Source of the DNA: Eukaryota sp. GEM-RC1
Lineage: Eukaryota
Direction: 5' to 3'
DNA length: 64,000 nt
Assembly: GCA_040285855.1 (NCBI GenBank)
Contig: JAUFOQ010000010.1
Location: forward strand, 372,001-436,000
The translations under genes and the position numbers were made by a program. The notes below the pieces were generated by a model that saw nothing but the letters and a program-made list of their open reading frames with translations, was not told the DNA's origin and ran no database searches. Of this stretch, positions 2,546 through 64,000 are shown piece by piece (the first letter of the stretch is position 1; each line of letters opens with the position of its first letter).

Positions 2546-2579
2546 AAGGTGAAACAATTTGATTTCTAAAAAAAATTAG

Positions 2580-18330: not shown

Positions 18331-18860
18331 AACGACTTTAAGATTCCAACGTTCGTCTGGCTATTCTTTAACTGAAATTAATGGTATTACTTATCATAAA
18401 CTCTGAAACAAATACTAACCATAGTCATTGGTTAATCGACGTTATGATTTTATATCAATAAACAATGGACCATAAACAATTATCATTTATAGAGACAATT
18501 ATTTTGTTTTTATTTTTGTCAAAGAATAGAGCAGCCACATTTCCAAAGCGGAGAGATGGGGCAGAAGTGCAACGATAAGATCTCCATAGAAATACAAGGT
18601 TTAGGAACGACGTGATGAAACATCTATAAAGGAGATTGGTATAAAGTTATTTTAACGGTGCGGTCAGAGCTTGTAGATGTGTGATTTAAAGAGTGATTAT
18701 TGTGGAAAAGAGTCTCTCTGAAAAGTGCAAATCCTTCATGAAATTAAAATGTAGAAACTGTTGATTATCTGTTCTACTCATTTGAATCATGAATCGTGAA
18801 TAGAACAATAAATTCATTTCAAATATTTTAAAAAATCTATATGTACTCTAAAAAACTATG

Positions 18861-21091
18861 AAGCCAGAATCGTCACCAAAAGTCAAAGATCTGTTTAGCC
18901 TGATTATTCACATAAATCAAAGACTGACTTATTAAAGAAACAAGAATTATTCAAAGTTAGTTTCTTGATTGTGAAACATTGAGACAAGGGCTGTAGTTGT
19001 GCTTCACCAGTACACGTAGTTATATTCCAAAACTTTGAGTGAAAAACAAATCACTCATCATATTTACCTTGTTTGATATAACCCAAGGTAAAGTAACCCA
19101 AGGAGCGAATCAAAAGATTGTAAACGACCCAGGCTTGATGAAGAAGCGATAAGAGAAACATGGGTTTTTGGATAGGATTTAGTAGAGATTTTAAGGTACC
19201 TCAAACTTTGATTCAGACACAGGGGTGATGCTATGACATGATCGTAGTCACATTGTGGAAGTACATTATAAGTGTTTGGAGAAAGAAGAAGATGGTTAAG
19301 AGCATCAGACTGTATAAGACACAACGGAGAGTTATTAAAGGAGATGATATTCTTCCAAACAATATTAGAATTCTGGAAGTGTGACCTCCTGATTCAAGTA
19401 CAGTCTAGACCTTAATGGGAGTTTTACCTTAATGGGAGGTTTTGTTTGTACAGACATGAACAGCAGACGACAGCCTTTTATGATATATAAACCAACAAAC
19501 TATGACTATTGTGCACCATTTGGTGATGAATTGAAGATGGCACGGATCTACCACCACGGGTAATCGTCGTCAAATTTAAGTGGTGGACACTCAATCATCA
19601 GCAAATAGCAATATTCTCTCAGATTTCTGCTAAATGGATGGATGAGAGAAGGGGAGAACTAGTGCTAACGGGGAGGGCGATATAAGAGCGAGAAAGGTCA
19701 AGGACGGACCTGCAACTACCAATATAGGAAAGGAGAAAGTTTCAGATACTCAAAGAGACAAATCACAGAGAACTTGTTCTGAAACCGTTAGTACGCAGAA
19801 TTGAATATGTGAATAGAAGAACCCCTTCAAAGCATTGATACGACAATAGCAGCATTAACATTGCTAGAGAAGAGTGTTCTTAAAAAGAGAATCTACAAGA
19901 GGGATATAAAAGATAGGGTAATTTATGCAAGAAGTACACCTAAAATCGTATTCTCAAGATGACAACGAAAACAGCAGATGATTGGTGATGAAAAGGGTAA
20001 GCTTATGTCTTAAGTTTACCCCTTGTTTCTTTGCTGCCTAAGAAACAATACTCTCTGTTATCTACTCTTTCTGAAAGTCAAAAATAAAAACCAATGATCC
20101 CGGTTAAGCTAGATTAGAAGGGTGTGATTGTTGCAAAGATAAGGTATCGATTCTGGCTTATATATGGTACTGTAACTGTTGGAAGAGGTTGAAAAGGAAC
20201 CCGAAAAGGGAAAAAATTGTCGTGCGACAAAATGATGTTGGAGTTTTTTTGAATGAACTCTTCGATCTGTGGTCTATTTTCTTCTTCCAATGTCTCACTA
20301 TCTCTGTGATATTTGTCATGAAATTCTCAAGAATCCGGTAACTACTTGGTGTGGCCACACCTTTTGTATGTCAGATTTGCAGGAGTGGCTTGTTTCTCAT
20401 AACGGATGTCCGATCTGTCGAGCTGAAGTGGACAAGTCAAGGCTGTGTCCTAACTACAAGTTGAAAGAAGCTGTTGAAGCCTTTGTTGCTGGTCAAGGTG
20501 AGACTATTTGTTTTGAGTGTGATGAAGCTGCTGCCACTTGTTATTGCGCAGATTGTGACGCTGATTTCTGTGACAACTGTTTTAACCCTGCGCATCGCCC
20601 CAAGTTGCTACGATCTCATGTTGCTGTCCCCCTAAATAAGAAGCATGCCTACCTTGTTCCTAAGTGCCCCAGCCACAACATGAAGTCGTTAGAGTTGTTC
20701 TGCACCTTCTGCTCCGTCGCCCTTTGCTCCACTTGTGCTTTCCTTGGTGATCATGACCAGCACAAAAAGAAGTTGCTTCCCTTTGACGAAGGTCGAACCT
20801 CTGTTGAAAAGAATATCAACTCTATAAACCAAGAATTGTCCGTTGCTATTGAAAAAATATCACAGTTAGCTGAAGCTGCTATTCAGCAAGCAACAAGTGG
20901 TTTTGTCCAACTCAAAGAAAGTCTGACTGTCCTGCTGCAAGAAACTATGTTAGACTCTGCTACCATTATGAATGACTTACAATCTGGGAAACCTGTCATT
21001 TTTAAGCCAAAGATCAGCGAAAAATTCACTACCACCACTTCAACCCTTCTCAACAACCAATCTAATATCATCTCCTCTTTAAATGAAGAAC
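18861..21091 (+). repeat. Segmental duplication (upstream region plus 5' part of the TRIM-LRR gene); copy at 61757-64000
   Basis: Near-identical sequence from 'aagccagaa..cgtcaccaaaagtcaaagatctg' onward in both places. Confidence 0.95.
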
Positions 21092-22245
21092 TTTTCTCCA
21101 TCCACTCCGATGTTTCTCGTCGTTTGACCTCTCTTTCCGTTGATTCGGAGTCTAGTGTTGCTTCTGCTAGGCTTCTAGAAGACCCTCCTTTACCAATCAA
21201 GTGCATTGAAAGTGTCTGCCCTGTACAACAAGTTGAAGAGAAGAAACTTGTTATTGATTGGAGCAAGCTTAGCTCTAAGTTGAAGAGTTGTTATGATCAA
21301 ATGGTGAGAAATGAGGTTTCTACGATCTATCTAAATAACAACTCAATTGGTACTGAAGGCGCTATTGCAATTGCTGAAGCTTTGAAGGTGAATTCTTCAC
21401 TTTCTACGATCAATCTAAATAACAACTCAATTGGTACTGAAGGCGCTATTGCAATTGCTGAAGCTTTGAAGGTGAATTCTTCACTTTCTACGATCAATCT
21501 AAATAACAACTCAATTGGTACTGAAGGCGCTATTGCAATTGCTGAAGCTTTGAAGGTGAATTCTTCACTTTCTACGATCAATCTAAATAGCAACTCAATT
21601 GGTACTGAAGGCGCTATTGCAATTGCTGAAGCTTTGAAGGTGAATTCTTCACTTTCTACGATCAATCTATATAACAACTCAATTGGTACTGAAGGCGCTA
21701 TTGCAATTGCTGAAGCTTTGAAGGTGAATTCTTCACTTTCTACGATCTATCTATATAACAACTCAATTGGTAATGAAGGCGCTATTGCAATTGCTGAAGC
21801 TTTGAAGGTGAATTCTTCACTTTCTACGATCTATCTATATAACAACTCAATTGGTAATGAAGGCGCTATTGCAATTGCTGAAGCTTTGAAGGTGAATTCT
21901 TCACTTTCTACGATCTATCTATATAACAACTCAATTGGTACTGAAGGCGCTATTGCAATTGCTGAAGCTTTGAAGGTGAATTCTTCACTTTCTACGATCT
22001 ATCTAGATAACAACTCAATTGGTACTGAAGGCGCTATTGCAATTGCTGAAGCTTTGAAGGTGAATTCTTCACTTTCTACGATCTATCTAGATAACAACTC
22101 AATTGGTACTGAAGGCGCTATTGCAATTGCTGAAGCTTTGAAGGTGAATTCTTCACTTTCTACGATCTATCTAAATAACAACTCAATCAACAGTCAAACA
22201 CAACAGTCGTTAAAATCTCTACACCAGAACAGAGTGTATTTTTAG
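20290..22245 (+). CDS. TRIM-like E3 ligase: RING, B-box1, B-box2, coiled coil/linker, 11 RNI-type LRR strands (651 aa)
   Basis: Intact ORF with ATG at 20290. RING CDICHE...CGHTFCMSD...CPIC; B-box1 CFEC...CADC...CDNC...H...H; B-box2 CPSH...CTFC...CSTC...HDQH; then 28-aa LSTIxLxxNSIGxEGAIAIAEALKVNSS repeats. Confidence 0.95.
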   Translation: MSHYLCDICHEILKNPVTTWCGHTFCMSDLQEWLVSHNGCPICRAEVDKSRLCPNYKLKEAVEAFVAGQGETICFECDEAAATCYCADCDADFCDNCFNPAHRPKLLRSHVAVPLNKKHAYLVPKCPSHNMKSLELFCTFCSVALCSTCAFLGDHDQHKKKLLPFDEGRTSVEKNINSINQELSVAIEKISQLAEAAIQQATSGFVQLKESLTVLLQETMLDSATIMNDLQSGKPVIFKPKISEKFTTTTSTLLNNQSNIISSLNEELFSIHSDVSRRLTSLSVDSESSVASARLLEDPPLPIKCIESVCPVQQVEEKKLVIDWSKLSSKLKSCYDQMVRNEVSTIYLNNNSIGTEGAIAIAEALKVNSSLSTINLNNNSIGTEGAIAIAEALKVNSSLSTINLNNNSIGTEGAIAIAEALKVNSSLSTINLNSNSIGTEGAIAIAEALKVNSSLSTINLYNNSIGTEGAIAIAEALKVNSSLSTIYLYNNSIGNEGAIAIAEALKVNSSLSTIYLYNNSIGNEGAIAIAEALKVNSSLSTIYLYNNSIGTEGAIAIAEALKVNSSLSTIYLDNNSIGTEGAIAIAEALKVNSSLSTIYLDNNSIGTEGAIAIAEALKVNSSLSTIYLNNNSINSQTQQSLKSLHQNRVYF

Positions 22246-23135
22246 ACATGTTTTTCTTGGATATAAAGATCACATTTTTCAATCACAAATAATTTCTTGT
22301 CAGAAACACCATTATTAAACGATGTATGTATAAAACACTTCAAAAATGATTTAGCTCAGAACAATCATTGTCCCGAACAAAACTCAGAAGTGACTCACCA
22401 CAGATAATCAAATATCATGGCTGTTTAGCAGATGTTGAGATACATATTTTAACTACTACTCTGGTGAGTAACACACATCATATTTACTCAGCTGGTGCTT
22501 TTGCGATTGTTCCCAATAACACCAGACATTTATTAGTATCTGAAATAGTGTTTATACTATATACTTACCAATATTTGGAATTGCCAACATTCAATCTCAT
22601 TATTAACACGACTATATTATCCTTTGAGAAGCTTCACTGTCAATATATGATGCTTGGATTATTCTCAGTGATGATTCATATACGTGTTTTTGCATTTTGT
22701 CAGTAAATCTGACAGTGATAGACAAAGAATTACCAAAACTGTTTCATTGAATATTGCAGTCAATAGCAAGAACACAAATGGCGGCGTTGAATTTACGAAG
22801 ACTCAGTGAAACTATTTTGCTTTCTGCAGTTTTTACATAGGCAAGTAAAAGCTATTGAAATTAAAGAGTATGAATTTGTAATCTTTGTTAACTGATTGTT
22901 GAGAATTTATTCGCAAATTACAGATATTTTACCAGAAGAAAGAGTGTATATATAGACTTTTTTAATACTGGTTAGAAGTAATATTATTATTTTGTCTTTG
23001 TGTCAAGACACAAAACCGGTTTTTGTACATCTTAACTTATGTAACATATACTAGGTGACACAGCAGTGGATATGTATTCTGTAGACTATCTGAAAAACAC
23101 AAAACGTAATTGATAAGGCTTTGAAGAAACACGGA

Positions 23136-23882
23136 GTCGTCTTTAAGCCAAAGATCAGCGAAAAATTCACTACCACCACTTCAACCCTTCTCAACAACCA
23201 ATCTAATATCATCTCCTCTTTAAATGAAGAACTGTTCTCCATCCACTCCGATGCTTCTCGTCGTTTGACCTCTCTTTCCGTTGATTCGGAGTCTAGTGTT
23301 GCTTCTGCTAGGCTTCTAGAAGACCCTCCTTTACCAATCAAGTGCATTGAAAGTGTCTGCCCTGTACAACAAGTTGAAGAGAAGAAACTTGTTATTGATT
23401 GGAGCAAGCTTAGCTCTAAGTTGAAGAGTTGTTATGATCAAATGGTGAGAAATGAGGTTTCTACGATCAATCTAGACAGCAACTCAATTGGTACTGAAGG
23501 CGCTATTGCAATTGCTGAAGCTTTGAAGGTGAATTCTTCACTTTCTACGATCTATCTAGATAACAACTCAATTGGTACTGAAGGCGCTATTGCAATTGCT
23601 GAAGCTTTGAAGGTGAATTCTTCACTTTCTAGAATCGATCTACGTAACAACTCAATTGGTACTGAAGGCGCTATTGCAATTGCTGAAGCTTTGAAGGTGA
23701 ATTCTTCACTTTCTACGATCTATCTAGATAACAACTCAATTGGTACTGAAGGCGCTATTGCAATTGCTGAAGCTTTGAAGGTGAATTCTTCACTTTCTAC
23801 GATCAATCTAAATAACAACTCAATCAACAGTCAAACACAACAGTCGTTAAAATCTCTACACCAGAACAGAGTGTATTTTTAG
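23136..23882 (+). pseudogene. 5'-truncated LRR cassette 1 (5 strands)
   Basis: Homology to the TRIM gene starts at V-x-FKPK. Frame is open; strands NLDS, YLDN, RIDLRN, YLDN, NLNN. No upstream in-frame ATG. Confidence 0.85.
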
Positions 23883-24771
23883 ACATGTTTTTCTTGGATA
23901 TAAAGATCACATTTTTCAATCACAAATAATTTCTTGTCAGAAACACCATTATTAAACGATGTATGTATAAAACACTTCAAAAATGATTTAGCTCAGAACA
24001 ATCATTGTCCCGAACAAAACTCAGAAGTGACTCACCACAGATAATCAAATATCATGGCTGTTTAGCAGATGTTGAGATACATATTTTAACTACTACTCTG
24101 GTGAGTAACACACATCATATTTACTCAGCTGGTGCTTTTGCGATTGTTCCCAATAACACCAGATATTTATTAGTATCTGAAATAGTGTTTATACTATATA
24201 CTTACCAATATTTGGAATTGCCAACATTCAATCTCATTATTAACACGACTATATTATCCTTTGAGAAGCTTCACTGTCAATATATGATGCTTGGATTATT
24301 CTCAGTGATGATTCATATACGTGTTTTTGCATTTTGTCAGTAAATCTGACAGTGATAGACAAAGAATTACCAAAACTGTTTCATTGAATATTGCAGTCAA
24401 TAGCAAGAACACAAATGGCGGCGTTGAATTTATGAAGACTCAGTGAAACTATTTTGCTTTCTGCAGTTTTTACATAGGCAAGTAAAAGCTATTGAAATTA
24501 AAGAGTATGAATTTGTAATCTTTGTTAACTGATTGTTGAGAATTTATTCGCAAATTACAGATATTTTACCAGAAGAAAGAGTGTATATATAGACTTTTTA
24601 ATACTGGTTAGAAGTAATATTATTATTTTGTCTTTGTGTCAAGACACAAAACCGGTTTTTGTACATCTTAACTTATGTAACATATACTAGGTGACACAGC
24701 AGTGGATATGTATTCTGTAGACTATCTGAAAAACACAAAACGTAATTGATAAGGCTTTGAAGAAACACGGA

Positions 24772-25686
24772 GTCGTCTTTAAGCCAAAGATCAGCGAAAA
24801 ATTCACTACCACCACTTCAACCCTTCTCAACAACCAATCTAATATCATCTCCTCTTTAAATGAAGAACTGTTCTCCATCCACTCCGATGCTTCTCGTCGT
24901 TTGACCTCTCTTTCCGTTGATTCGGAGTCTAGTGTTGCTTCTGCTAGGCTTCTAGAAGACCCTCCTTTACCAATCAAGTGCATTGAAAGTGTCTGCCCTG
25001 TACAACAAGTTGAAGAGAAGAAACTTGTTATTGATTGGAGCAAGCTTAGCTCTAAGTTGAAGAGTTGTTATGATCAAATGGTGAGAAATGAGGTTTCTAC
25101 GATCAATCTAGACAGCAACTCAATTGGTACTGAAGGCGCTATTGCAATTGCTGAAGCTTTGAAGGTGAATTCTTCACTTTCTACGATCTATCTAGATAAC
25201 AACTCAATTGGTACTGAAGGCGCTATTGCAATTGCTGAAGCTTTGAAGGTGAATTCTTCACTTTCTAGAATCGATCTACGTAACAACTCAATTGGTACTG
25301 AAGGCGCTTTTGCAATTGCTGAAGCTTTGAAGGTGAATTCTTCACTTTCTACGATCAATCTAAATAACAACTCAATTGGTAATGAAGGCGCTATTGCAAT
25401 TGCTGAAGCTTTGAAGGTGAATTCTTCACTTTCTACGATCTATCTATATAACAACTCAATTGGTACTGAAGGCGCTATTGCAATTGCTGAAGCTTTGAAG
25501 GTGAATTCTTCACTTTCTACGATCAATCTAAATAACAACTCAATTGGTAATGAAGGCGCTATTGCAATTGCTGAAGCTTTGAAGGTGAATTCTTCACTTT
25601 CTACGATCAATCTAAATAACAACTCAATCAACAGTCAAACACAACAGTCGTTAAAATCTCTACACCAGAACAGAGTGTATTTTTAG
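24772..25686 (+). pseudogene. 5'-truncated LRR cassette 2 (7 strands)
   Basis: Same 5' breakpoint; frame open to the native stop. Confidence 0.85.
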
Positions 25687-26577
25687 ACATGTTTTTCTTG
25701 GATATAAAGATCACATTTTTCAATCACAAATAATTTCTTATCAGAAACACCATTATTAAACGATGTATGTATAAAACACTTCAAAAATGATTTAGCTCAG
25801 AACAATCATTGTCCCGAACAAAACTCAGAAGTGACTCACCACAGATAATCAAATATCATGGCTGTTTAGCAGATGTTGAGATACATATTTTAACTACTAC
25901 TCTGGTGAGTAACACACATCATATTTACTCAGCTGGTGCTTTTGCGATTGTTCCCAATAACACCAGACATTTATTAGTATCTGAAATAGTGTTTATACTA
26001 TATTCTTACCAATATTTGGAATTGCCAACATTCAATCTCATTATTAACACGACTATATTATCCTTTGAGAAGCTTCACTGTCAATATATGATGCTTGGAT
26101 TATTCTCAGTGATGATTCATATACGTGTTTTTGCATTTTTTCAGTAAATCTGACAGTGATAGACAAAGAATTACCAAAACTGTTTCATTGAATATTGCAG
26201 TCAATAGCAAGAACACAAATGGCGGCGTTGAATTTACGAAGACTCAGTGAAACTATTTTGCTTTCTGCAGTTTTTACATAGGCAAGTAAAAGCTATTGAA
26301 ACTAAAGAGTATGAATTTGTAATCTTTGTTAACTGATTGTTGAGAATTTATTCGCAAATTACAGATATTTTACCAGAAGAAAGAGTGTATATATAGACTT
26401 TTTAATACTGGTTAGAAGTAATATTATTATTTTGTCTTTGTGTCAAGACACAAAACCGGTTTTTGTACATCTTAACTTATGTAACATATACTAGGTGACA
26501 CAGCAGTGGATATGTATTCTGTAGACTATCTGAAAAACACAAAACGTAATTGATAAGGCTTTGAAGAAACACGCGGA

Positions 26578-27408
26578 GTCGTCTTTAAGCCAAAGATCAG
26601 CGAAAAATTCACTACCACCACTTCAACCCTTCTCAACAACCAATCTAATATCATCTCCTCTTTAAATGAAGAACTGTTCTCCATCCACTCCGATGCTTCT
26701 CGTCGTTTGACCTCTCTTTCCGTTGATTCGGAGTCTAGTGTTGCTTCTGCTAGGCTTCTAGAAGACCCTCCTTTACCAATCAAGTGCATTGAAAGTGTCT
26801 GCCCTGTACAACAAGTTGAAGAGAAGAAACTTGTTATTGATTGGAGCAAGCTTAGCTCTAAGTTGAAGAGTTGTTATGATCAAATGGTGAGAAATGAGGT
26901 TTCTACGATCAATCTAGACAGCAACTCAATTGGTAATGAAGGCGCTATTGCAATTGCTGAAGCTTTGAAGGTGAATTCTTCACTTTCTACGATCAATCTA
27001 GACAGCAACTCAATTGGTAATGAAGGCGCTATTGCAATTGCTGAAGCTTTGAAGGTGAATTCTTCACTTTCTACGATCAATCTAAATAACAACTCAATTG
27101 GTAATGAAGGCGCTATTGCAATTGCTGAAGCTTTGAAGGTGAATTCTTCACTTTCTACGATCTATCTATATAACAACTCAATTGGTACTGAAGGCGCTAT
27201 TGCAATTGCTGAAGCTTTGAAGGTGAATTCTTCACTTTCTACGATCAATCTAAATAACAACTCAATTGGTAATGAAGGCGCTATTGCAATTGCTGAAGCT
27301 TTGAAGGTGAATTCTTCACTTTCTACGATCAATCTAAATAACAACTCAATCAACAGTCAAACACAACAGTCGTTAAAATCTCTACACCAGAACAGAGTGT
27401 ATTTTTAG
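26578..27408 (+). pseudogene. 5'-truncated LRR cassette 3 (6 strands)
   Basis: Same 5' breakpoint; frame open to the native stop. Confidence 0.85.
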
Positions 27409-28300
27409 ACATGTTTTTCTTGGATATAAAGATCACATTTTTCAATCACAAATAATTTCTTATCAGAAACACCATTATTAAACGATGTATGTATAAAACA
27501 CTTCAAAAATGATTTAGCTCAGAACAATCATTGTCCCGAACAAAACTCAGAAGTGACTCACCACAGATAATCAAATATCATGGCTGTTTAGCAGATGTTG
27601 AGATACATATTTTAACTACTACTCTGGTGAGTAACACACATCATATTTACTCAGCTGGTGCTTTTGCGATTGTTCCCAATAACACCAGACATTTATTAGT
27701 ATCTGAAATAGTGTTTATACTATATACTTACCAATATTTGGAATTGCCAACATTCAATCTCATTATTAACACGACTATATTATCCTTTGAGAAGCTTCAC
27801 TGTCAATATATGATGCTTGGATTATTCTCAGTGATGATTCATATACGTGTTTTTGCATTTTTTCAGTAAATCTGACAGTGATAGACAAAGAATTACCAAA
27901 ACTGTTTCATTGAATATTGCAGTCAATAGCAAGAACACAAATGGCGGCGTTGAATTTACGAAGACTCAGTGAAACTATTTTGCTTTCTGCAGTTTTTACA
28001 TAGGCAAGTAAAAGCTATTGAAATTAAAGAGTATGAATTTGTAATCTTTGTTAACTGATTGTTGAGAATTTATTCGCAAATTACAGATATTTTACCAGAA
28101 GAAAGAGTGTATATATAGACTTTTTTAATACTGGTTAGAAGTAATATTAATATTTTGTCTTTGTGTCAAGACACAAAACCGGTTTTTGTACATCTTAACT
28201 TATGTAACATATACTAGGTGACACAGCAGTGGATATTTATTCTGTAGACTATCTGAAAAACACAAAACGTAATTGATAAGGCTTTGAAGAAACACGCGGA

Positions 28301-29047
28301 GTCGTCTTTAAGCCAAAGATCAGCGAAAAATTCACTACCACCACTTCAACCCTTCTCAACAACCAATCTAATATCATCTCCTCTTTAAATGAAGAACTGT
28401 TCTCCATCCACTCCGATGCTTCTCGTCGTTTGACCTCTCTTTCCGTTGATTCGGAGTCTAGTGTTGCTTCTGCTAGGCTTCTAGAAGACCCTCCTTTACC
28501 AATCAAGTGCATTGAAAGTGTCTGCCCTGTACAACAAGTTGAAGAGAAGAAACTTGTTATTGATTGGAGCAAGCTTAGCTCTAAGTTGAAGAGTTGTTAT
28601 GATCAAATGGTGAGAAATGAGGTTTCTACGATCAATCTAGACAGCAACTCAATTGGTAATGAAGGCGCTATTGCAATTGCTGAAGCTTTGAAGGTGAATT
28701 CTTCACTTTCTACGATCAATCTAAATAACAACTCAATTGGTAATGAAGGCGCTATTGCAATTGCTGAAGCTTTGAAGGTGAATTCTTCACTTTCTACGAT
28801 CTATCTATATAACAACTCAATTGGTACTGAAGGCGCTATTGCAATTGCTGAAGCTTTGAAGGTGAATTCTTCACTTTCTACGATCAATCTAAATAACAAC
28901 TCAATTGGTAATGAAGGCGCTATTGCAATTGCTGAAGCTTTGAAGGTGAATTCTTCACTTTCTACGATCAATCTAAATAACAACTCAATCAACAGTCAAA
29001 CACAACAGTCGTTAAAATCTCTACACCAGAACAGAGTGTATTTTTAG
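28301..29047 (+). pseudogene. 5'-truncated LRR cassette 4 (5 strands)
   Basis: Same 5' breakpoint; frame open to the native stop. Confidence 0.85.
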
Positions 29048-29938
29048 ACATGTTTTTCTTGGATATAAAGATCACATTTTTCAATCACAAATAATTTCTT
29101 ATCAGAAACACCATTATTAAACGATGTATGTATAAAACACTTCAAAATGATTTAGCTCAGAACAATCATTGTCCCGAACAAAACTCAGAAGTGACTCACC
29201 ACAGATAATCAAATATCATGGCTGTTTAGCTGATGTTGAGATACATATTTTAACTACTACTCTGGTGAGTAACACACATCATATTTACTCAGCTGGTGCT
29301 TTTGCGATTGTTCCCAATAACACCAGACATTTATTAGTATCTGAAATAGTGTTTATACTATATACTTACCAATATTTGGAATTGCCAACATTCAATCTCA
29401 TTATTAACACGACTATATTATCCTTTGAGAAGCTTCACTGTCAATATATGATGCTTGGATTATTCTCAGTGATGATTCATATACGTGTTTTTGCATTTTT
29501 TCAGTAAATCTGACAGTGATAGACAAAGAATTACCAAAACTGTTTCATTGAATATTGCAGTCAATAGCAAGAACACAAATGGCGGCGTTGAATTTACGAA
29601 GACTCAGTGAAACTATTTTGCTTTCTGCAGTTTTTACATAGGCAAGTAAAAGCTATTGAAATTAAAGAGTATGAATTTGTAATCTTTGTTAACTGATTGT
29701 TGAGAATTTATTCGCAAATTACAGATATTTTACCAGAAGAAAGAGTGTATATATAGACTTTTTTAATACTGGTTAGAAGTAATATTAATATTTTGTCTTT
29801 GTGTCAAGACACAAAACCGGTTTTTGTACATCTTAACTTATGTAACATATACTAGGTGACACAGCAGTGGATATGTATTCTGTAGACTATCTGAAAAACA
29901 CAAAACGTAATTGATAAGGCTTTGAAGAAACACGCGGA

Positions 29939-31357
29939 GTTGTCTTTAAGCCAAAGATCAGCGAAAAATTCACTACCACCACTTCAACCCTTCTCAACAA
30001 CCAATCTAATATCATCTCCTCTTTAAATGAAGAACTGTTCTCCATCCACTCCGATGCTTCTCGTCGTTTGACCTCTCTTTCCGTTGATTCGGAGTCTAGT
30101 GTTGCTTCTGCTAGGCTTCTAGAAGACCCTCCTTTACCAATCAAGTGCATTGAAAGTGTCTGCCCTGTACAACAAGTTGAAGAGAAGAAACTTGTTATTG
30201 ATTGGAGCAAGCTTAGCTCTAAGTTGAAGAGTTGTTATGATCAAATGGTGAGAAATGAGGTTTCTACGATCAATCTAAATAACAACTCAATTGGTACTGA
30301 AGGCGCTATTGCAATTGCTGAAGCTTTGAAGGTGAATTCTTCACTTTCTACGATCTATCTATATAACAACTCAATTGGTACTGAAGGCGCTATTGCAATT
30401 GCTGAAGCTTTGAAGGTGAATTCTTCACTTTCTACGATCAATCTAAATAACAACTCAATTGGTAATGAAGGCGCTATTGCAATTGCTGAAGCTTTGAAGG
30501 TGAATTCTTCACTTTCTACGATCAATCTAAATAACAACTCAATTGGTACTGAAGGCGCTATTGCAATTGCTGAAGCTTTGAAGGTGAATTCTTCACTTTC
30601 TACGATCTATCTAGATAACAACTCAATTGGTACTGAAGGCGCTATTGCAATTGCTGAAGCTTTGAAGGTGAATTCTTCACTTTCTAGAATCGATCTAAAT
30701 AACAACTCAATTGGTAATGAAGGCGCTATTGCAATTGCTGAAGCTTTGAAGGTGAATTCTTCACTTTCTACGATCAATCTAAATAACAACTCAATTGGTA
30801 ATGAAGGCGCTATTGCAATTGCTGAAGCTTTGAAGGTGAATTCTTCACTTTCTACGATCTATCTATATAACAACTCAATTGGTACTGAAGGCGCTATTGC
30901 AATTGCTGAAGCTTTGAAGGTGAATTCTTCACTTTCTACGATCAATCTAAATAACAACTCAATTGGTAATGAAGGCGCTATTGCAATTGCTGAAGCTTTG
31001 AAGGTGAATTCTTCACTTTCTACGATCGGTCTATCTAACAACTCAATTGGTAATGAAGGCGCTATTGCAATTGCTGAAGCTTTGAAGGTGAATTCTTCAC
31101 TTTCTACGATCGGTCTATCTAACAACTCAATTGGTAATGAAGGCGCTATTGCAATTGCTGAAGCTTTGAAGGTGAATTCTTCACTTTCTACGATCGGTCT
31201 ATCTAACAACTCAATTGGTAATGAAGGCGCTATTGCAATTGCTGAAGCTTTGAAGGTGAATTCTTCACTTTCTACGATCAATCTAAATAACAACTCAATC
31301 AACAGTCAAACACAACAGTCGTTAAAATCTCTACACCAGAACAGAGTGTATTTTTAG
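29939..31357 (+). pseudogene. 5'-truncated LRR cassette 5 (13 strands)
   Basis: Same 5' breakpoint; includes the unique TIGLSNN x3 and RIDLNNN strands; frame open. Confidence 0.85.
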
Positions 31358-32248
31358 ACATGTTTTTCTTGGATATAAAGATCACATTTTTCAATCACAA
31401 ATAATTTCTTATCAGAAACACCATTATTAAACGATGTATGTATAAAACACTTCAAAAATGATTTAGCTCAGAACAATCATTGTCCCGAACAAAACTCAGA
31501 AGTGACTCACCACAGATAATCAAATATCATGGCTGTTTAGCAGATGTTGAGATACATATTTTAACTACTACTCTGGTGAGTAACACACATCATATTTACT
31601 CAGCTGGTGCTTTTTCGATTGTTCCCAATAACACCAGACATTTTTTAGTATCTGAAATAGTGTTTATACTATATACTTACCAATATTTGGAATTGCCAAC
31701 ATTCAATCTCATTATTAACACGACTATATTATCCTTTGAGAAGCTTCACTGTCAATATATGATGCTTGGATTATTCTCAGTGATGATTTATATACGTGTT
31801 TTTGCATTTTTCAGTAAATCTGACAGTGATAGACAAAGAATTACCAAAACTGTTTCATTGAATATTGCAGTCAATAGCAAGAACACAAATGGCGGCGTTG
31901 AATTTACGAAGACTCAGTGAAACTATTTTGCTTTCTGCAATTTTTACATAGGCAAGTAAAAGCTATTGAAATTAAAGAGTATGAATTTGTAATCTTTGTG
32001 AACTGATTGTTGAGAATTTATTCGCAAATTACAGATATTTTACCAGAAGAAAGAGTGTATATATAGACTTTTTTAATACTGGTTAGAAGTAATATTATTA
32101 TTTTGTCTTTGTGTCAAGACACAAAACCGGTTTTTGTACATCTTAACTTATGTAACATATACTAGGTGACATAGCAGTGGATATGTATTCTGTAGACTAT
32201 CTGAAAAACACAAAACGTAATTGATAAGGCTTTGAAGAAACACGCGGA

Positions 32249-33891
32249 GTCGGCTTTAAGCCAAAGATCAGCGAAAAATTCACTACCACCACTTCAACCC
32301 TTCTCAACAACCAATCTAATATCATCTCCTCTTTAAATGAAGAACTTTTCTCCATCCACTCCGATGTTTCTCGTCGTTTGACCTCTCTTTCCGTTGATTC
32401 GGAGTCTAGTGTTGCTTCTGCTAGGCTTCTAGAAGACCCTCCTTTACCAATCAAGTGCATTGAAAGTGTCTGCCCTGTACAACAAGTTGAAGAGAAGAAA
32501 CTTGTTATTGATTGGAGCAAGCTTAGCTCTAAGTTGAAGAGTTGTTATGATCAAATGGTGAGAAATGAGGTTTCTACGATCTATCTAGACAGCAACTCAA
32601 TTGGTAATGAAGGCGCTATTGCAATTGCTGAAGCTTTGAAGGTGAATTCTTCTCTTTCTACGATCAATCTATATAACAACTCAATTGGTAATGAAGGCGC
32701 TATTGCAATTGCTGAAGCTTTGAAGGTGAATTCTTCTCTTTCTACGATCAATCTATATAACAACTCAATTGGTAATGAAGGCGCTATTGCAATTGCTGAA
32801 GCTTTGAAGGTGAATTCTTCACTTTCAACCATAGTTGCAAAATACAAAATACAGTATTTTTTTGTATTCTGTATTTTTTCTGTATTATGTTTTGTATTTT
32901 TTTCTGGACAAGTGTATTTGTATTTTTTGTATTTATTTATCAGCCCGAAAATCCCTTTAATTGATGAAAATGACTGAAGTCATTGAGAGCAACACTCGAC
33001 AGCGGATCTTTCTGATCAATTGTACTATTGTTTGGAACAATTGGCACATGTATTATTTTAACAACTTGCAGAAATGCTAGTACAACTGTTTGCTGAATTT
33101 TCGAAACGTTCCAGTACAGTACGTCAACGGCGTATGCTAGATGACTAAAAAGTGAAACACCGACCAAAGTCAAGTAACAAAAATTTAGAAACGCTTAATA
33201 ATGTTCTTTCCAAAGAGTTGAAAAATACCAAACCATGTGAAGTTGTGCAATCTAGTTTCACTACTGTCAGTCAGTGATGAAGATTTAAAGCCCTGATGAG
33301 ACGAGCTGCACGACACTCAGATTGATCCTGTTTTGAAGATGTACGTGTAGTCTTTGGAGACTATGATTTCGAGTATATACATTTTTACCTACACTCGATG
33401 TATAAAGACGATTTACAACTAATGTGCGAGACAAAAAGTGTCCAAAGTCACATTGTAAAACTGTACGACTCCACGTCAGTTCTTTCCGTGGACCAAGTGC
33501 ACATTTGAACCCTCGGTGCATTTCAGAATCGAAATAACAATTGGGTTGATAAATGAAAAAAGTCTAAGAATGTGTACTGAAGAGGTGAACCATGATAACC
33601 CTGAAAATCAATCACGTTTGCAGTCATTGGACTCAATACACTTGGTTTAATACTTGCAATTACTAGAAAGAAAAACAATTAATACAGTATTCTGTATTGT
33701 ATTTGTATTCTGTATTCTGTATTGTATTTTTGTAAATTTATTCTGTATTTTTTGTATTCTGTATTGTATTATTTTTTTTGTCCGTGTATTTTGCAACTAT
33801 GCTTTCAACGATCTATCTACATAACAACTCAATCAACAGTCAAACACAACAGTCGTTAAAATCTCTACACCAGAACAGAGTGTATTTTTAG
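32249..33891 (+). pseudogene. 5'-truncated LRR cassette 6 (4 strands), interrupted by a hAT MITE
   Basis: The reading frame resumes after 33801 with TIYLHNNSINSQ...RVYF*. Confidence 0.85.
32830..33801. mobile_element. Non-autonomous hAT-superfamily MITE, 972 bp
   Basis: Perfect 17-bp TIR CATAGTTGCAAAATACA / TGTATTTTGCAACTATG and 8-bp TSD CTTTCAAC (32822-32829 and 33802-33809). Sub-terminal (c)tgtatt repeats; no transposase ORF. Confidence 0.95.
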
Positions 33892-34784
33892 ACATGTTTT
33901 TCTTGGATATAAAGATCACATTTTTCAATCACAAATAATTTCTTGTCAGAAACACCATAATTAAACGGTGTATGTATAAAACACTTCAAAAATGATTTAG
34001 CTCAGAACAATCATTGTCCCGAACAAAACTCAGAAGTGACTCACCACAGATAATCAAATATCATGGCTGTTTATGTAGATGTTGAGATACATATTTTAAC
34101 TACTACTCTGGTGAGTAACACACATCATATTTACTCAGCTGGTGCTTTTGCGATTGTTCTCAATAACACCAGACATTTATTAGTATCTGAAATAGTGTTT
34201 ATACTATATACTTACCAATATTGGGAATTGCCAACATTCAATCTCATTATTAACACGACTATATTATCCTTTGAGAAGCTTCACTGTCAATATATGATGC
34301 TTGGATAATTCTCAGTGATGATTCATAAACGTGTTTTTACATTTTTTCAGTAAATCTGACAGTGATAGACAAAGAATTACCAAAACTGTTTCATTGAATA
34401 TTGCAGTCAATAGCAAGAACACAAATGGCGACGTTGAATTTACGAAGACTCAGTGAAACTATTTTGCTTTCTGCAGTTTTTATATAGGCAAGTATAAGCT
34501 ATTGAAATTAAAGAGTATGAATTTGTGATCTTTGTTAACTAATTGTTGAGAATTTATTCGCAAATTGCAGATATTTTACCAGAAGAAAGAGTGTATGTAT
34601 AGACTTTTTTAATACTGGTTAGAAGTAATATTATTATTTTGTCTTTGTGTCAAGACACAAAACCGGTTTTTGTACATCTTAACTTATGTAACATATACTA
34701 GGTGACACAGCAGTGGATATGTATTCTGTAGACTATCTGAAAAACACAAAACGTAATTGATAAGGCTTTGAAGAAACACGCGGA

Positions 34785-35363
34785 GTCGTCTTTAAGCCAA
34801 AGATCAGCGAAAAATTCACTACCACCACTTCAACCCTTCTCAACAACCAATCTAATATCATCTCCTCTTTAAATGAAGAACTTTTCTCCATCCACTCCGA
34901 TGCTTCTCGTCGTTTGACCTCTCTTTCCGTTGATTCGGAGTCTAGTGTTGCTTCTGCTAGGCTTCTAGAAGACCCTCCTTTACCAATCAAGTGCATTGAA
35001 AGTGTCTGCCCTGTACAACAAGTTGAAGAGAAGAAACTTGTTATTGATTGGAGCAAGCTTAGCTCTAAGTTGAAGAGTTGTTATGATCAAATGGTGAGAA
35101 ATGAGGTTTCTACGATCGATCTAAATAACAACTCAATTGGTAATGAAGGCGCTATTGCAATTGCTGAAGCTTTGAAGGTGAATTCTTCACTTTCTACGAT
35201 CTATCTATATAACAACTCAATTGGTCCTGAAGCCGCTATTGCAATTGCTGAAGCTTTGAAGGTGAATTCGTCTGTTTCTACGATCGATCTATATAACAAC
35301 TCAATCAACAGTCAAACACAACAGTCGTTAAAATCACTGCACAAGAATAGAATTTATTTCTAA
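34785..35363 (+). pseudogene. 5'-truncated LRR cassette 7 (3 strands) with a diverged 3' end
   Basis: Same 5' breakpoint; ends HKNRIYF* (TAA). Its 3' flank is only loosely similar to the other spacers. Confidence 0.85.
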
Positions 35364-35898
35364 AGATATTTTCCTCAGATATAAAGATCACCCCATTTTC
35401 AGTCACAGAGGAACAAATATCAAAGCAGTTGAGCAGTTGTTCATATACAGATTGATTTTCAGTTTTACCTGGTAATTAAGACACGTCATATCCAAAGTTC
35501 ATTTGCTATTGTTTTCAACAACACCAGGTATTAATTAGTATCTGGAAATGATGTAACATTATACTATATGTTTCGAAATATTTGGATTCACCGACACATT
35601 TTCTCGTTATTAACACGGTTGTATTTTTTCTCAAAAACCAGCTTAATTGTTCTTGAGTTGAGTGATGCTTTGATTATTCTCAGTGATATATAATGTGTAC
35701 AGTATGCTTTTGTATGTGTTCCATCGATATTTTAGTCATGGTAATTTATTGAGTATTGGTCAAAATTAGGTTGATCGTTAGATTCTGTTTTAGTGATCTG
35801 TAATGCAATTGGAAATCTTGTCACGCAATTGTCTCAACACATAAAATAGGTCTTTGATTATCTTATGAAGAACACTCAAGTTGAGCCATCACCATATA

Positions 35899-38800
35899 GA
35901 TTAACATGTATCAATGTAATTAAGTAGCGGTGATTGTGTGGCGTCGATTGTTAAACGACATTGTGTTAGTTTCACAAAAAAAAACACATCACAACTAACA
36001 ACAATCAATGTTGATCTAATTCTTTATAGTAACTTTCAAAATGGTACAAACAAATCTTGATGATAAGCAAAGACGAATTGAATGTATAAACGAAAACCAA
36101 GAATTGACGAAATTCACAGATATGGATATACAACAGGATAAAGAAATTAGTAAAAGATCTTGATGATGTGGCCGAAGCATAATTTACCAACAATCTACAC
36201 CACACTTTGAAATAAACATGTCACAAACCTAGTTTGACAGAATCATGGATTATTCGGAATCAATATAATTGGTGTTTGATCACATTAAGTACATATACGA
36301 TTTTTTCAACTTTTGTTATTGTACAAGAATTGCATCAGAATCTACAGCACATTTACTGCACTGATCCTACATGGCAAATCTTTTTGTACGAATAGTAAAC
36401 TATTTCAATCAATCCAATTTCAAAACAACTATTATACATCCCAAAACAAAATACGCGTTGAAAGCAAAATAAAATTGGATTTGTTCAAAATGATTTGAAA
36501 ATGTAATTATAAATTGTCTGATAACTCTGAAACAATGTCAAAAACTGACAAATCGAAATTTAATTTATGAACGAAACACTATGAAAATGACTACAAAATC
36601 AGATGTTAGACTCTGTAATAAACATTCTGATGACGTCACACTGATAAAAGTTACCGACAGAGTCAAATGGTTTCTATCAGTCAAGAAAAGATAAACCCTC
36701 ACTCGTCAGAGTAGGTTAATGTGATAAATCATTTTACTCTGTCGCTCATTCCTCACTGAGAAGAACCCTAACCTTAACATAAAGGCCTATATTGGATGCT
36801 TAATACGTTATTTGATGAACTTTACTTGGGGTTCATCCCTTCTCTTAAAAGTACTCGTTTCCAGAACTCTAAACTTGCATACCAACTTGACCTCCCGTGT
36901 CATTTACAATTGAAAATTCACTCTCAAAAGATAAAAGCATTCCAACCTTCTTCAATAATTTTCTACTTCCACTTCTGATACTCAGAAGAATGGATATCCT
37001 CCCAGCACCAGTTCCAAAGTTCATTTCTATACACCGTCCAATCCTGCGTGCAACTTCTGCAAGAAACCTGGTTATTCAATAGACCACTATCCTAATCCTT
37101 TTCTGCAGAACATCCAAAGTGAACAAAAACCAAAAGTCTTACCCACAGTTAATCCTAGTAATCCAAAATACACTGCTAATAACTCCAAAAGAAGTAGACT
37201 CTTAAGGTGAAACAATTTTATTTCTAAAAAAATTCAAATGAACATTTCAAATTCACAGCCATCCTGCTTGACATGTGGGAAAGACAGCAGCAAACCAACT
37301 TATACACGTTTCACAACGCAATCAATCAAATGAGTCGAAAGACGACCCCTCATCAGTGGTCTTCTGCTACGTCATCCAATAATTCTCTTGGATTCCGTCT
37401 ATTATGAGGATCTGAGGTTTTCTGATTTTACGGGTGTTTTAGCAACGTTCCCATACTTAATTAGGAATGTTGGTTTTGTCAGTCACTGTTTTTTATTCAA
37501 CTTTTTCTTTTCGCCGACATTGGTTCTTAAAGAACAAAAAGTTCCAAAAATATCTCAAATCAATAAGAGTGACATTAAACACTGTAAGTTCCACAATTTT
37601 CATTTGTTCAAATCAATAATTAAAATAGCAGAGATTCTGTGTGATCAAAATTACTTTCGTCACCCATTGAAATCACTTTATTTATTGAATTTATAAATTC
37701 TTAACATAAATGAAACAAATACAACGACACTACACATAAACTGCAGTCATCACTTTCATTTCCTCAGTAAAACGAAGAACATATTGAAGAATTGACCTGA
37801 AAGTTTTGATTTAATAAGTATTAAATAGATTAAATGATTTTGTACTGGAAACCTTGGAAATGAAACACCCAGAAGTTTGTCCACAGATTCACTCAGATTA
37901 GAACCGTGAAAATTGTGGGAATGAGTGATTTTTGTTTTCGTACTTAAATAAGTGACACGTAGATGGTGATTTGAATCTTGCTCACCTTACAGTGCTGATG
38001 ACGTCATCAATTTATCAACCACGTGGCCATCCACAAGGACTGACCAGATCTAAAGTGATTTGGAAGAGAATAGATTGGAGACGTTGATGGGAGAAGTTCA
38101 TATGAAGCAGATCAAGGGACATAGGAAAAGCAAAGAGAAGGGATGTTCATTCAAAAGATCAAGATATCAAGTTGAGACCTGACACTGTTGTCCTGCATGC
38201 AAAGTTGTTGGGTTCAGCAGAGGGCTTCAGAGGAAAGTTAATATTCTTCTCGTTGTGGACGTAAAGTGGAGGTGTAGAATTGTAGCACAACACCTGAGTT
38301 ACAGGTAGATAGAGGAGAATCACCACGTTACTTAAAAGATGTAAGAACTGGTCTTTGTGACAAACAGCAGAAAGTTTGGGTGCTAGATTCACTTTGAGAT
38401 TAAAGTAGAAGTCTGTTTTTCTCTGGCTACATCCCATAGAAGTTCATCTTATTTCAACCAATCTCCACTTACATGTCAGATCCTTCATCACCTGGTCATC
38501 AGTTCCCTTGTGATCATGTTCATTTCCAACAATCCTTGTTGACACTGATACAATCTCACTACATCAGAAGTTACTTAAGGAACTGGAAGGATAAGAACTG
38601 GTGGTACTTTAGTAGTGTGACACAATTTCTACCGCGTTTCTTGAAAAGGTTGGTTATGTGAGTCAATATTTCTTTGAATCTTCTGTTATAGCAGTTAAGA
38701 ATTTTCTTGGGAATAACTCATTTTATGTCTGTTCTACCAATTTTCCAAGAGTTCGTTCATTTGAATCTAGTTTCGGAATAGAACTCGGTTCCATAATTCT

Positions 38801-39945
38801 AAACGTTCACGAATCGTTTGAATGGAAAAATATTTCACTTTTACTTCAACTATTTCTGGTGTCTTCTTGCCTCAACATGCCTTTGAAAATGATCATGACT
38901 CTATGTTACAACTTCTCTTTGATGAATCTTTCCCTTTCTTCTCAGTGAATCTTATATACCTTCGGTTTACCATAAACAGTTCAAAGGATAACATTAATTC
39001 TATATGTGATTACCTTCCAAAACATTCAAGCATCTCAGATTTAGCCATTGAAATTCATTCTCTCACTTCATTTGATGCGTTAGTTCTTGCTAAAGTGTTT
39101 TCTTCAAATCAAACATTACGTAAGGTTTCTCTGGTATCTTCGAAAAGTATAGATGAAAAGTCTATATTGCGGTTTGAAGGTCTTGCGATTAGTCGAATTC
39201 AACACCTTGATTTAACAGATTTTTGTATAGACAATTCAAATGTTCTTGTGTCCCTACTATCACGTTCTTCTTTGTCAACTTTTGTTTCCCCCGTTGTTCT
39301 TCCATTGATTCGGCGGTGTTTGCTGTTTTGCAGAGCAATACCAGTCTAAAAGAGGTAACAATATTAAATGGAACTTTTACTTTTCATGATCTTACAGATG
39401 TTCTTATTCATAATCCTATTGTGAGGAAATTAAACCTGTCATCGTGTAATGTTTCATTATCATTATTATTTAAATTTTTGAATCAAATTCCACTGTGTTA
39501 GAGTTATCTATTTCTGAACAAATTATTAGAAAATTCAATGACCAAGAAGTAGAGTCCTTATGTGGAATGTTACAACGCAATTCTTGTTTGCTTATCTTGA
39601 GTCTTCACGGTTTACGATTTACTTTTTTGCAATTCAATATTTTTCTAAATGCACTTGAAAATCACTCAATGCTAAAAAAAGTACTTTGTCCCTTTTGAAT
39701 TTAAATTGCTTAATTACAATGTTTGAAAGAATGTTTCCTGGTAAAACAAGATCTCTGATTGATGTAACTCCCTATGATATCAATGTTTTCGATGGTTCTA
39801 TTTGGTATCCAGATGAAATTGAACATGATGATTTAATATCACTTTTAAATGCTTTAAGATTAGGGATTCCCATTATCCGTGTTGAATGTGTGGAAAACAA
39901 CATGTATTCGAGTCTTGACAAATTTATTACAATATTTGAAATTCT
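35899..39945 (+). repeat. Segmental duplication of 1269-5292
   Basis: Collinear, near-identical sequence, including identical ORFs at 3503/38159 and 3817/38473. Confidence 0.95.
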
Positions 39946-42900: not shown

Positions 42901-43002
42901 GTTAATTCTAGTCTTGCATGTGTCAATTTTTTAGCCAACATCCGCGATTCTCATGTTCAGAAGCGTATTAAAAGTCACTCAAATAATCGAATATGGTGTT
43001 AA
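38473..43002 (+). pseudogene. Large LRR gene C, chimeric (gene-A-like 5' part, gene-B-like from ~39960), with in-frame stops
   Basis: Contiguous LRR ORFs. In-frame stops occur at expected Leu positions (SQ*TPNFQISPH ~40327; AIV*AEMLKVN ~42728), plus frameshifts. Confidence 0.75.
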
Positions 43003-43961: not shown

Positions 43962-44812
43962 CTAAAAATCATTAAAGCAACAATCATTGTCTTCAAAACT
44001 CACAACAGCTTTTTTCTTCATAAAAACACTGAGATCCACTAGAGCTTTTGAAATCATAATATGAATTGTTTTAAATATTGTAAAGACAATTTGATTCAAC
44101 CAAAACTTTAAATCAAATTTCTTGTTCATTCTTTTTGACCAATTTCTCAGAATCAGAGAGAAAACAAAGAGCGTCTCTACCAAGTCGACCATAAATTGAT
44201 ATTCCAAGAGGACATAATTTGTGCTCAACATGTCTAGTATGTTTGAGAGCAGTCAATGGTACATCACATTTGTTTCTCTTGTATTGTTCTGAAAAATCAA
44301 GTGGAAACACTTCATTTTTAGCATCATTAATGCACTTTTTTGCAAACATCCACAGTAATCACATCCACAACCGTTTGTTCATCATTGACTGATGGAACTA
44401 TGACATCAGCTCTTCTTTCACCAAAAGTGTTAACAGAATCACTATTTTTTAAATTATTGATTCCCAGTGATCTCAACAGTGGCTCAACGAAAGATCCATT
44501 TTTGTAGGACTTACACAGGGCATGAATTTGATCTCTGACAGCATCATGAATGCAAGTTCTATAAGTAATGAAACGATTGCAACTCAAAAGGTGAGAAAAA
44601 GTAACTAATTTACCACATTTACATAGAAGATCATTGGGTAAATTAGTGGGACATAAGAAACATCGAAGTCTGAATGTTGTAGTCCATTGATGATCATTCA
44701 ACAACAAACCATAAATCTGAGGAATTTGGTTGATCAAAGCAACTGAAGAAATATACTTCAAATCGATTACAAAATTGTGAATGCTGGATTTTTTCTTTGG
44801 CCGAGACATCAT
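43962..44812 (-). mobile_element. 5'-truncated non-LTR retrotransposon: CCHC finger plus restriction-like endonuclease (REL)
   Basis: FRLR...CKCGK...HLLSC...IHDAVRD...VEP...RRADVIV...VVDV; frameshifted; homologous to 60486-61388. Confidence 0.75.
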
Positions 44813-55931: not shown

Positions 55932-56000
55932 TCAGTTGTGTAGAATTACTGGAATAACGAGTATGATCTCACTGTCGGATGGAAGATATAAGAGAAGGAT

Positions 56001-63198: not shown

Positions 63199-64000
63199 AT
63201 GTCTCACTATCTCTGTGATATTTGTCATGGAATTCTCAAGAATCCGGTAACTACTTGGTGTGGCCACACCTTTTGTATGTCGGATTTGCAGGAGTGGCTT
63301 GTTTCTCATAACGGATGTCCGATCTGTCGAGCTGAAGTGGACAAGTCAAGGCTGTGTCCTAACTACAAGTTGAAAGAAGCTGTTGAAGCCTTTGTTGCTG
63401 GTCAAGGTGAGACTATTTGTTTTGAGTGTGATGAAGCTGCTGCCACTTGTTATTGCGCAGATTGTGACGCTGATTTCTGTGACAACTGTTTTAACCCTGC
63501 GCATCGCCCCAAGTTGCTACGATCTCATGTTGCTGTCCCCCTAAATAAGAAGCATGCCTACCTTGTTCCTAAGTGCCCCAGCCACAACATGAAGTCGTTA
63601 GAGTTGTTCTGCACCTTCTGCTCCGTTGCCCTTTGTTCCACGTGTGCTTTCCTTGGTGACCATGACCAACACAAGAAGAAGTTGCTTCCCTTCGATGAAG
63701 GTCGAACCTCTGTTGAAAAGAATATCAACTCAATTAATCAAGAGTTGTCGTTAGGCATTGAAAAAATATCACAGTCAGCTGAAGCTGCTATCCAGCAAGC
63801 AACAAGTGGTTTTGTCCAACTCAAAGAAAGTCTGACTCTCCTGCTGCAAGAAACTATGTTAGACTCTGCTACCATTATGAATGACTTACAATCTGGGAAA
63901 CCTGTCATTTTTACGCCAAAGATCAGCGAAAAATTCACTACCACCACTTCAACCCTTCTCAACAACCAATCTAATATCATCTCCTCTTTAAATGAAGAAC
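63199..64000 (+). CDS. Second TRIM-like RING/B-box gene (runs off the window)
   Basis: ATG at 63199; open frame nearly identical to 20290-21091. Confidence 0.9.
   Translation, partial: MSHYLCDICHGILKNPVTTWCGHTFCMSDLQEWLVSHNGCPICRAEVDKSRLCPNYKLKEAVEAFVAGQGETICFECDEAAATCYCADCDADFCDNCFNPAHRPKLLRSHVAVPLNKKHAYLVPKCPSHNMKSLELFCTFCSVALCSTCAFLGDHDQHKKKLLPFDEGRTSVEKNINSINQELSLGIEKISQSAEAAIQQATSGFVQLKESLTLLLQETMLDSATIMNDLQSGKPVIFTPKISEKFTTTTSTLLNNQSNIISSLNEE

Follow-up and report, generated by a model that had tools for sequence, protein, structure and literature searches.

The subject of this analysis is a set of nearly identical 84-bp leucine-rich repeats (LRRs) in a 64,000-nucleotide stretch of DNA from Eukaryota sp. 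GEM-RC1 (contig JAUFOQ010000010.1, positions 372,001 to 436,000, forward strand), called here the window. The repeats begin inside an intact gene whose predicted N-terminal half, its head, resembles that of the TRIM proteins. They continue in seven tandem, 5'-truncated copies of the 3' half of that gene, which follow it and are called here cassettes. An earlier reading of the letters (the original prediction) had held that variation among the repeats is confined to the concave, ligand-binding face of the fold, that silent sites are frozen, and that strong diversifying selection or targeted mutation acts on a framework homogenised by recombination; it made no mention of the gene to which the repeats belong. 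The source organism is, in the available part of its description, a Skoliomonas isolate within a metamonad clade (bioRxiv 10.1101/2023.05.03.539051); the word "leucine" is absent from the main text of that preprint, as far as it was available.

A TRIM-like gene and its headless copies

The locus contains the following features (strand in brackets, a point where none applies).

20290..22245 (+): intact, intron-free gene for a RING, B-box 1, B-box 2, coiled coil, linker and 11 LRRs, 651 aa
21319..22242 (+): LRR array of the intact gene, 10 full and 1 terminal repeats, predicted ribonuclease inhibitor (RI)/NOD2-like fold
22246..23141 (.): spacer (~900 bp) repeated between cassettes, 7 copies, 1.0% mean pairwise difference
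23142..23882 (+): cassette 1, 318-bp linker, 5 repeats and stop, without RING, B-box or first coiled-coil helix
24778..25686 (+): cassette 2, 7 repeats, 5' block like cassette 1 and 3' block like cassettes 3 and 4
26584..27408 (+): cassette 3, 6 repeats
28307..29047 (+): cassette 4, 5 repeats
29945..31357 (+): cassette 5, 13 repeats, one of them a hybrid (30683) and three of them identical G-S repeats
32255..33891 (+): cassette 6, 4 repeats, split by an insertion right where the terminal repeat begins
32830..33801 (.): the insertion, non-coding, 972 bp, 16-bp terminal inverted repeats, 8-bp target-site duplication, resembling a miniature inverted-repeat transposable element
34791..35363 (+): cassette 7, 3 repeats
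63199..64000 (+): second copy of the TRIM-like gene, 5' part, cut by the window end, within a 97% identical duplication

The intact gene is read in one uninterrupted frame of 651 codons, and a layout of one LRR per exon is not found here. Its protein (P0001) matches the Pfam families zf-C3HC4 (residues 17-54), zf-B_box (135-171) and LRR_6. An ANCHR-like B-box at 85-122 falls below the curated Pfam cut-off, and neither NACHT nor NB-ARC is among the 20 Pfam families matched. Solved structures matching the N-terminal half include TIF1-beta/TRIM28, TRIM3, TRIM2, TRIM25 and the tandem B-boxes of Midline-1. The modelled RING lies within 1.3-1.6 Å of those of TRIM21 and TRIM69 and has Asp as its sixth zinc ligand. 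Helices are predicted at 165-231 (67 residues) and 244-282 (39 residues) with a local predicted distance difference score (pLDDT) of 67-86, in a whole model whose predicted template modelling score is just 0.34. A long coiled-coil helix would, on this model, follow B-box 2, and a hairpin helix would come next, as in the TRIM/RBCC arrangement. Judged from its sequence, then, the gene is predicted to have a TRIM/RBCC-like head.

Homologs of this head number seven, the five best being proteins of GEM-RC1 itself with up to 81% identity (80-81% local identity over residues 1-345). Animal TRIM matches are two, weak and amphibian (E 2e-7 and 3e-5); a homolog search at E 1e-100 gave 2 matches and added nothing. 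One GEM-RC1 protein, P0004, has the same RING/B-box/coiled-coil head on a non-LRR tail; an RRM-like reading of its C-terminus, made by eye, was dropped, as Pfam gives no such match. Another, P0009, is the head alone and ends a few residues before the cassette junction, and P0018 and P0020 start at about that place; breaks at the hairpin may have recurred within this family. A metagenome scan with an exact 23-base framework motif gave 0 matches, a metagenome pattern scan gave 314 with no confirmed relative of the N-terminal half among them, and an exact-sequence search of a protein collection found 0 of 9 window proteins.

The TRIM-like gene has itself been duplicated by segmental duplication. 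Its two copies differ at a proportion of 0.093 of silent sites (pS) against 0.010 of non-synonymous sites (pN), which indicates purifying selection on the N-terminal half. The differences (20-odd, mostly silent) cluster in one patch, codons 143-198, which looks like a conversion tract.

Each cassette consists of the 318-bp linker, between 3 and 13 repeats and a stop, and is followed by ~900 bp of spacer. All start at one and the same junction, residue 238, which lies in the loop joining the two long helices. Six codons ahead of its first repeat every cassette has an in-frame ATG, and its open frame spans 90-370 aa. Across 8 copies of the linker, 2 of 318 columns vary, as against 32 substitution columns of 950 in 7 spacers (Fisher p 0.008) and none in the 57-bp coding tail; cassette 6 and the intact gene have identical linkers. 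Given this conservation of linker and tail, the cassettes either are translated in one way or another or trade sequence with the intact gene. The spacers carry private and nested variants. Each also carries a 118-codon frame (22350-22706 and its copies) that resembles 35404-35687 and 48-129 at the DNA level and may be the decayed remnant of some other gene; neither this frame nor one antisense to cassette 6 has a Pfam match above the cut-off. The insertion in cassette 6, which may be of the hAT type, has sub-terminal short repeats and no second copy within the window.

Variable codons in a uniform repeat

With the unit numbered c1-c28 from the Ser preceding the strand, 54 repeats were extracted between 21319 and 35360, 46 of them full and 8 terminal. 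They form nine runs, since one array is split by the insertion. These counts are identical to those first given, as are the 14 distinct nine-residue strands among the 54 repeats and the alleles listed for the variable codons; the 46 full repeats have 17 distinct 12-residue starts. The alleles in the 54 repeats are T51/R3 at c2, N27/Y19/D5/G3 at c4, N23/Y13/D12/S3/R2/H1 at c6 and N47/S7 at c7; at c12, in the 46 full repeats, they are T23/N22/P1. Outside these five codons there are three single amino-acid changes and three silent changes (c1, c26 and c27). Two further silent changes, in c2 and c6, bring the distinct silent changes to five. The framework is thus as nearly invariant as had been described: in the 46 repeats, 23 of the 28 positions have no variant or a singleton one, and the repeats pass the threshold of >85% identity over at least 100 aa that is given in the part of PMC4986451 available. 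The six x codons of LxxLxLxxNxL were fixed in advance of the diversity tests, and 13 of the minimum 20 distinct mutations fall in them (binomial p 3e-5).

Where these codons lie was judged on an AlphaFold2 model of the array made from a single sequence (pLDDT 87.6), by secondary structure only and not by side chains. The model matches the structures of NOD2, ribonuclease inhibitor and NLRP3, an LRR fold whose concave face is lined by the strand. Both c2 and c4 are placed on that strand, c6 where it ends and c7 just after it; c12 would lie in the first turn of the helix, off the concave sheet. Confinement to the concave face would therefore hold for three to four of the five positions and fail for c12. 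The Thr codon at c12 is specific to this locus, and a single base change turns it into either the Asn or the Pro codon present here, Asn and Pro being the two common c12 residues of the family; it may therefore be a mutational or recombinant intermediate.

For comparison there are 15 GEM-RC1 proteins with this repeat type, examined at the protein level only; six with more distant repeats and two without LRRs were left out. A pattern match, which missed some first and last units, gave 54 repeats, 51 of them outside P0022, in 14 proteins. In these 51, the highest entropies are at c6, c2, c4, c7 and c12 (1.6-3.4 bits; next 0.9), and variability per position agrees between window and paralogs (Spearman 0.66, p 1e-4). 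The framework agrees as well, apart from residues that mark the locus. At c28, 45 of 46 window repeats have L and 45 of 51 paralog repeats V; T at c12 is found in 23 of 46 window repeats against 0 of 51. The sole window repeat with V at c28 sits at the array edge, at the 3' end of cassette 7, where c12 has the family-consensus P and the 3' flank has diverged (69-85% to the spacers over ~500 bp). Locus-specific fixed residues, together with a V repeat at the edge, point to concerted evolution within the locus. At the same time, 6 of the 11 c4-c7 words are common to paralogs whose framework has a different fixed residue.

The variant combinations go beyond what a single tree explains. By heuristic search, the most parsimonious tree found for the 19 haplotypes is 29 steps long where 19 would be the minimum; c4, c6 and c12 account for 8 of the 10 steps in excess, and four-gamete violations occur between sites 6 bp apart. 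The repeat at 30683 joins c2-c4 of the R-D-R repeat to c6-c12 of its neighbour, in the same flanking context as in cassette 2; one recombination event here takes the place of three reversions. Neighbouring cassettes have blocks of repeats in common. Breakpoints thus appear to fall within the 36-bp strand itself, where new residue combinations would arise, and recurrent mutation may account for some of the homoplasy. Of 140 residues compared between cassette 6 and P0022, which shares the read-through into the insertion, 3 differ, and each of these is at c4, c6 or c7. These differences fit continuing conversion in a disrupted copy, and could equally be two renderings of one locus.

Silent sites, selection and the competing explanations

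Silent diversity in the framework is 1.03% (46 full repeats; two sites), and the mean pairwise difference among the seven non-coding spacers is also 1.03%. Silent sites do change, therefore, and at the level of non-coding DNA; what had been called frozen mostly reflects the youth and homogenisation of the array. Two other genes in the window served as controls.

54281-55540 (-) and 55992-57281 (+): older 28-residue LRR genes with diverged repeats, pS 0.53 and 0.65

The value of 0.53, obtained among 10 repeats of the first, indicates that low silent divergence is special to the array at the cassette locus.

Amino-acid diversity is distributed very differently. Non-synonymous diversity (piN) at the pre-chosen x codons is 0.146, against 0.003 in the framework and a synonymous diversity (piS) of 0.025 over the whole repeat; that is six times the overall piS and 14 times the framework piS. 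At the five codons originally named, piN is 0.217. Minimum mutation counts give an omega of about 3 (10 non-synonymous changes over 14 sites, 5 silent over 21.3 sites; binomial p 0.03, or 0.02 with c12 included). In a neutral coalescent with equal rates at silent and x sites, the observed piN/piS is attained in ~0.5% of 4000 runs. The amino-acid diversity of the x codons exceeds what relaxed constraint explains (p about 0.005 in this crude simulation). The piN/piS contrast, the simulation, the variability of the paralogs and the hybrid repeats together support the central proposal of the original prediction, diversifying selection on a framework homogenised by recombination.

Several points weigh against this reading. 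Silent diversity inside the x codons is likewise raised (piS 0.089 against piN 0.146), which fits the hitch-hiking of imported tracts and weakens a pure dN/dS argument. A multiple-hit test is not significant (p 0.13). The independent events are few (20 distinct mutations), the repeats are not independent of one another, and the coalescent null is crude. The sixth zinc ligand of the RING is Asp here and His in P0004 and P0005, which makes ligase activity uncertain. The evidence for positive selection at a few surface codons is thus of moderate strength, and comes from one locus.

With these points counted, we give a probability of roughly 0.68 to the reading that the repeats are the LRR domain of a TRIM-like gene and of its truncated copies, homogenised by recombination, with selection at five exposed positions. 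Unequal crossing-over and gene conversion would likely keep the repeats alike, and selection would likely maintain alternative residues at the five positions. The product would be a predicted ubiquitin ligase, its RING perhaps active, with a fast-changing target-binding surface. The selection may come from changing foreign ligands, that is, proteins of viruses or bacteria within a protist that feeds on bacteria. One partial tandem duplication is the most likely origin of the cassettes, followed by amplification through unequal crossing-over; they would now form a passive pool that exchanges repeats with the intact gene. They are treated as by-products in this role because few repeat types are shared and the region duplicates readily.

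It is conceivable, if unlikely, that the cassettes are instead expressed. Translation could start at the in-frame ATG and yield LRR-only proteins, or splicing could join a cassette to the RING/B-box/coiled-coil part as an alternative last exon. Every cassette has that ATG and an open frame, 6 of 7 frames are intact, linker and coding tail are better conserved than the spacers, and the GEM-RC1 annotation has predicted proteins beginning at this Met (P0022, P0085 and P0096). Gene predictions, however, carry no weight as evidence of expression, and intact frames are expected anyway at 1% divergence. Nor does LRR-only translation explain the conservation of the linker, because the linker lies upstream of the ATG and contains no Met.

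We doubt somewhat more that the headless copies are a dedicated library of silent donors, from which conversion through the shared linker and the tail or spacer replaces the expressed LRR array, clonally. The layout would suit this. There is a single shared junction, with homology arms on both sides of the variable array; the linker is less variable than the spacers, and that of cassette 6 is the same as the intact gene's; the P0022 differences are confined to c4, c6 and c7; and P0096 resembles two tandem LRR-only units at another locus. However, of the 7 types of full repeat in the intact gene, the cassettes contain only 3. The sharing of blocks by neighbouring cassettes is what simple recent amplification predicts, diversity is low (19 haplotypes), and ordinary segmental duplications are abundant in the region. 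Linker conservation, moreover, is equally explained by purifying selection on a translated product. By the layout analogy, one might go on to propose a clonal, anticipatory repertoire in an anaerobic metamonad, an intracellular TRIM-like LRR ligase diversified by directional conversion from the cassettes with breakpoints inside the strand; this we hold to be just as doubtful. Were the headless copies directional donors, the locus would be a case of programmed receptor diversification in a unicellular eukaryote.

An absence of positive selection, with the exposed positions free, the framework under purifying selection and the array simply young, is improbable. It has in its favour that framework silent diversity is the same as spacer diversity, that the count-based omega is just moderately significant, and that these positions also vary most in the old gene at 54281, where pN, at 0.52, is close to pS, at 0.53 (both uncorrected and near saturation). 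It must set against these the excess of x-codon piN over piS and the result of the neutral simulation, the intermediate frequency of the variants, and the c4-c7 words found also in paralogs with a different framework residue.

Very improbable, in turn, is an error of assembly or polishing that produced both the uniform framework and the mosaic combinations. Such arrays are indeed hard to assemble (the het-e repeats, by the accessible part of the published account, could not be rebuilt from Illumina assemblies), and the three differences between P0022 and cassette 6 could come from a single locus rendered twice. But variation falls at these five positions in 14 proteins encoded elsewhere too, the spacers have private and nested variants, the insertion has a clean target-site duplication, and errors would not single out surface codons for non-synonymous change. 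The number and order of the repeats may still be wrong in part.

Targeted mutation, by an adenine-specific mutator as in diversity-generating retroelements or in a hypermutation window over the strand, is the least credible source of the variants. AAY is a common allele in 4 of the 5 variable codons, and A is the majority base at 8 of 15 variable nucleotides. Yet the silent third-position A of c5, c9, c13, c17 and c20 is unchanged in 46 of 46 full repeats, and that of c5 (CTA) and c9 (TCA) in 54 of 54, although c5 sits between the two most variable codons. Some variants had been said to need two base changes; GGT, CGT and TCT do differ from AAT by two bases, but the array contains an allele a single change away from each (GAT, CAT and TAT, respectively), leaving only ACG/AGA without an intermediate. 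No reverse transcriptase is found by Pfam in the 10 window open reading frames scanned (of 27 of at least 170 aa). The invariant silent adenines adjoining the variable codons, and the one-step intermediates, led us to reject the targeted mutation that had been proposed.

Known systems and other features of the window

The headline pattern, an identical framework with variable binding residues, is already known from other repeat receptors. The comparisons that follow extend to the accessible portions of the papers cited. The same regime is described for the WD40 repeats of Podospora anserina het-d and het-e (HNWD) and for fungal ANK and TPR receptors (PMC4986451, PMC12222747), which share with the window near-identical repeats, concerted evolution by unequal crossing-over and variation in repeat number. 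Hypervariable codons on the binding surface are four in het-e and five in the window repeats. The fungal receptors differ in joining NACHT or NB-ARC to WD40, ANK or TPR, whereas the window gene joins RING, B-box and coiled coil to RI-type LRRs; no LRR is reported for fungal NLRs in the available part of PMC4986451. The headless tandem copies behind the gene also set the window locus apart from the fungal receptors.

In the Ectocarpus ROCO LRR-GTPases, LRR units are shuffled within and between loci, four concave sites are positively selected, and non-coding LRRs near the gene are proposed as a reservoir (PMC3341825). Shuffling, selected concave-face sites and spare units near the gene are thus common to the two. 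In Ectocarpus, however, one 24-aa LRR is one exon and the spare units lie in introns, whereas the window repeats are of 28 aa and intron-free, recombination appears to take place within the repeat, and each spare unit is an entire LRR domain.

The order of RING, two B-boxes and coiled coil, followed by a variable C-terminal recognition domain, is that of the TRIM/RBCC proteins and of finTRIM (PMC3503706, PMC4852459). In fish finTRIM and NLR-B30.2 genes, gene conversion lowers silent divergence and positive selection acts on exposed B30.2 residues (PMC4852459). In the window gene the C-terminal domain is an LRR array instead of B30.2 or MATH. Only MATH-type subfamily A TRIMs are given for organisms outside animals in the accessible text of PMC3503706, and the word "leucine" does not occur in that text. 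Clusters combining B-box and LRR are present in the ESM Atlas at scores under 0.9, which makes them weak leads. Among protists, the 90-bp-exon LRR genes of Tetrahymena are scrambled by ectopic recombination and gene conversion (PMC6564038). They too are a large, young LRR family scrambled by recombination; they differ in being exon-based and retrotransposon-associated, with a 30-aa unit and no TRIM-like head seen in the portion available.

In Borrelia vlsE and the chicken immunoglobulin pseudogenes, a complete gene stands beside promoter-less partial copies of its variable part with shared flanks. Such silent-cassette systems are defined by directional, high-rate conversion into an expression site. 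The window cassettes match this layout (partial copies, shared flanks, one complete gene), and each has in addition an in-frame ATG. They are unlike it in being few, young and mutually similar, and the likeness is one of layout alone.

A search of the literature for a TRIM-LRR architecture or a cassette system in protists, in which subscription papers were thinly covered and supplements lay outside the scope, gave analogues alone. Within the same scope, it held no description of such receptors in this metamonad lineage. New, then, would be the carrier, predicted to be a TRIM-like ligase with LRRs in a skoliomonad-like protist, and the array of headless cassettes. The regime known from fungi and algae would be extended to a TRIM-like ligase in a deep-branching, free-living metamonad lineage. 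Because the repeats are intron-free and differ at few sites, recombination steps can be read directly, and the locus offers a clean test of how repeat receptors make new specificities.

Elsewhere in the window, two related frames at 44327-44872 (-) and 60486-61406 (-), with 69% DNA identity, look by eye like the nuclease end of a non-LTR retroelement and have no Pfam match at E 0.01. At 3960-10807 and 38822-42996 are long, degenerate LRR-like genes, frameshifted or mis-assembled, which spread over several overlapping frames and contain internal repeats of ~590-640 bp; the longest of these frames has no Pfam match. Segmental duplications of 96-97% identity, 35-43 kb apart, join 1269-5292 to 35899-39945 and 18857-21091 to 61753-64000.

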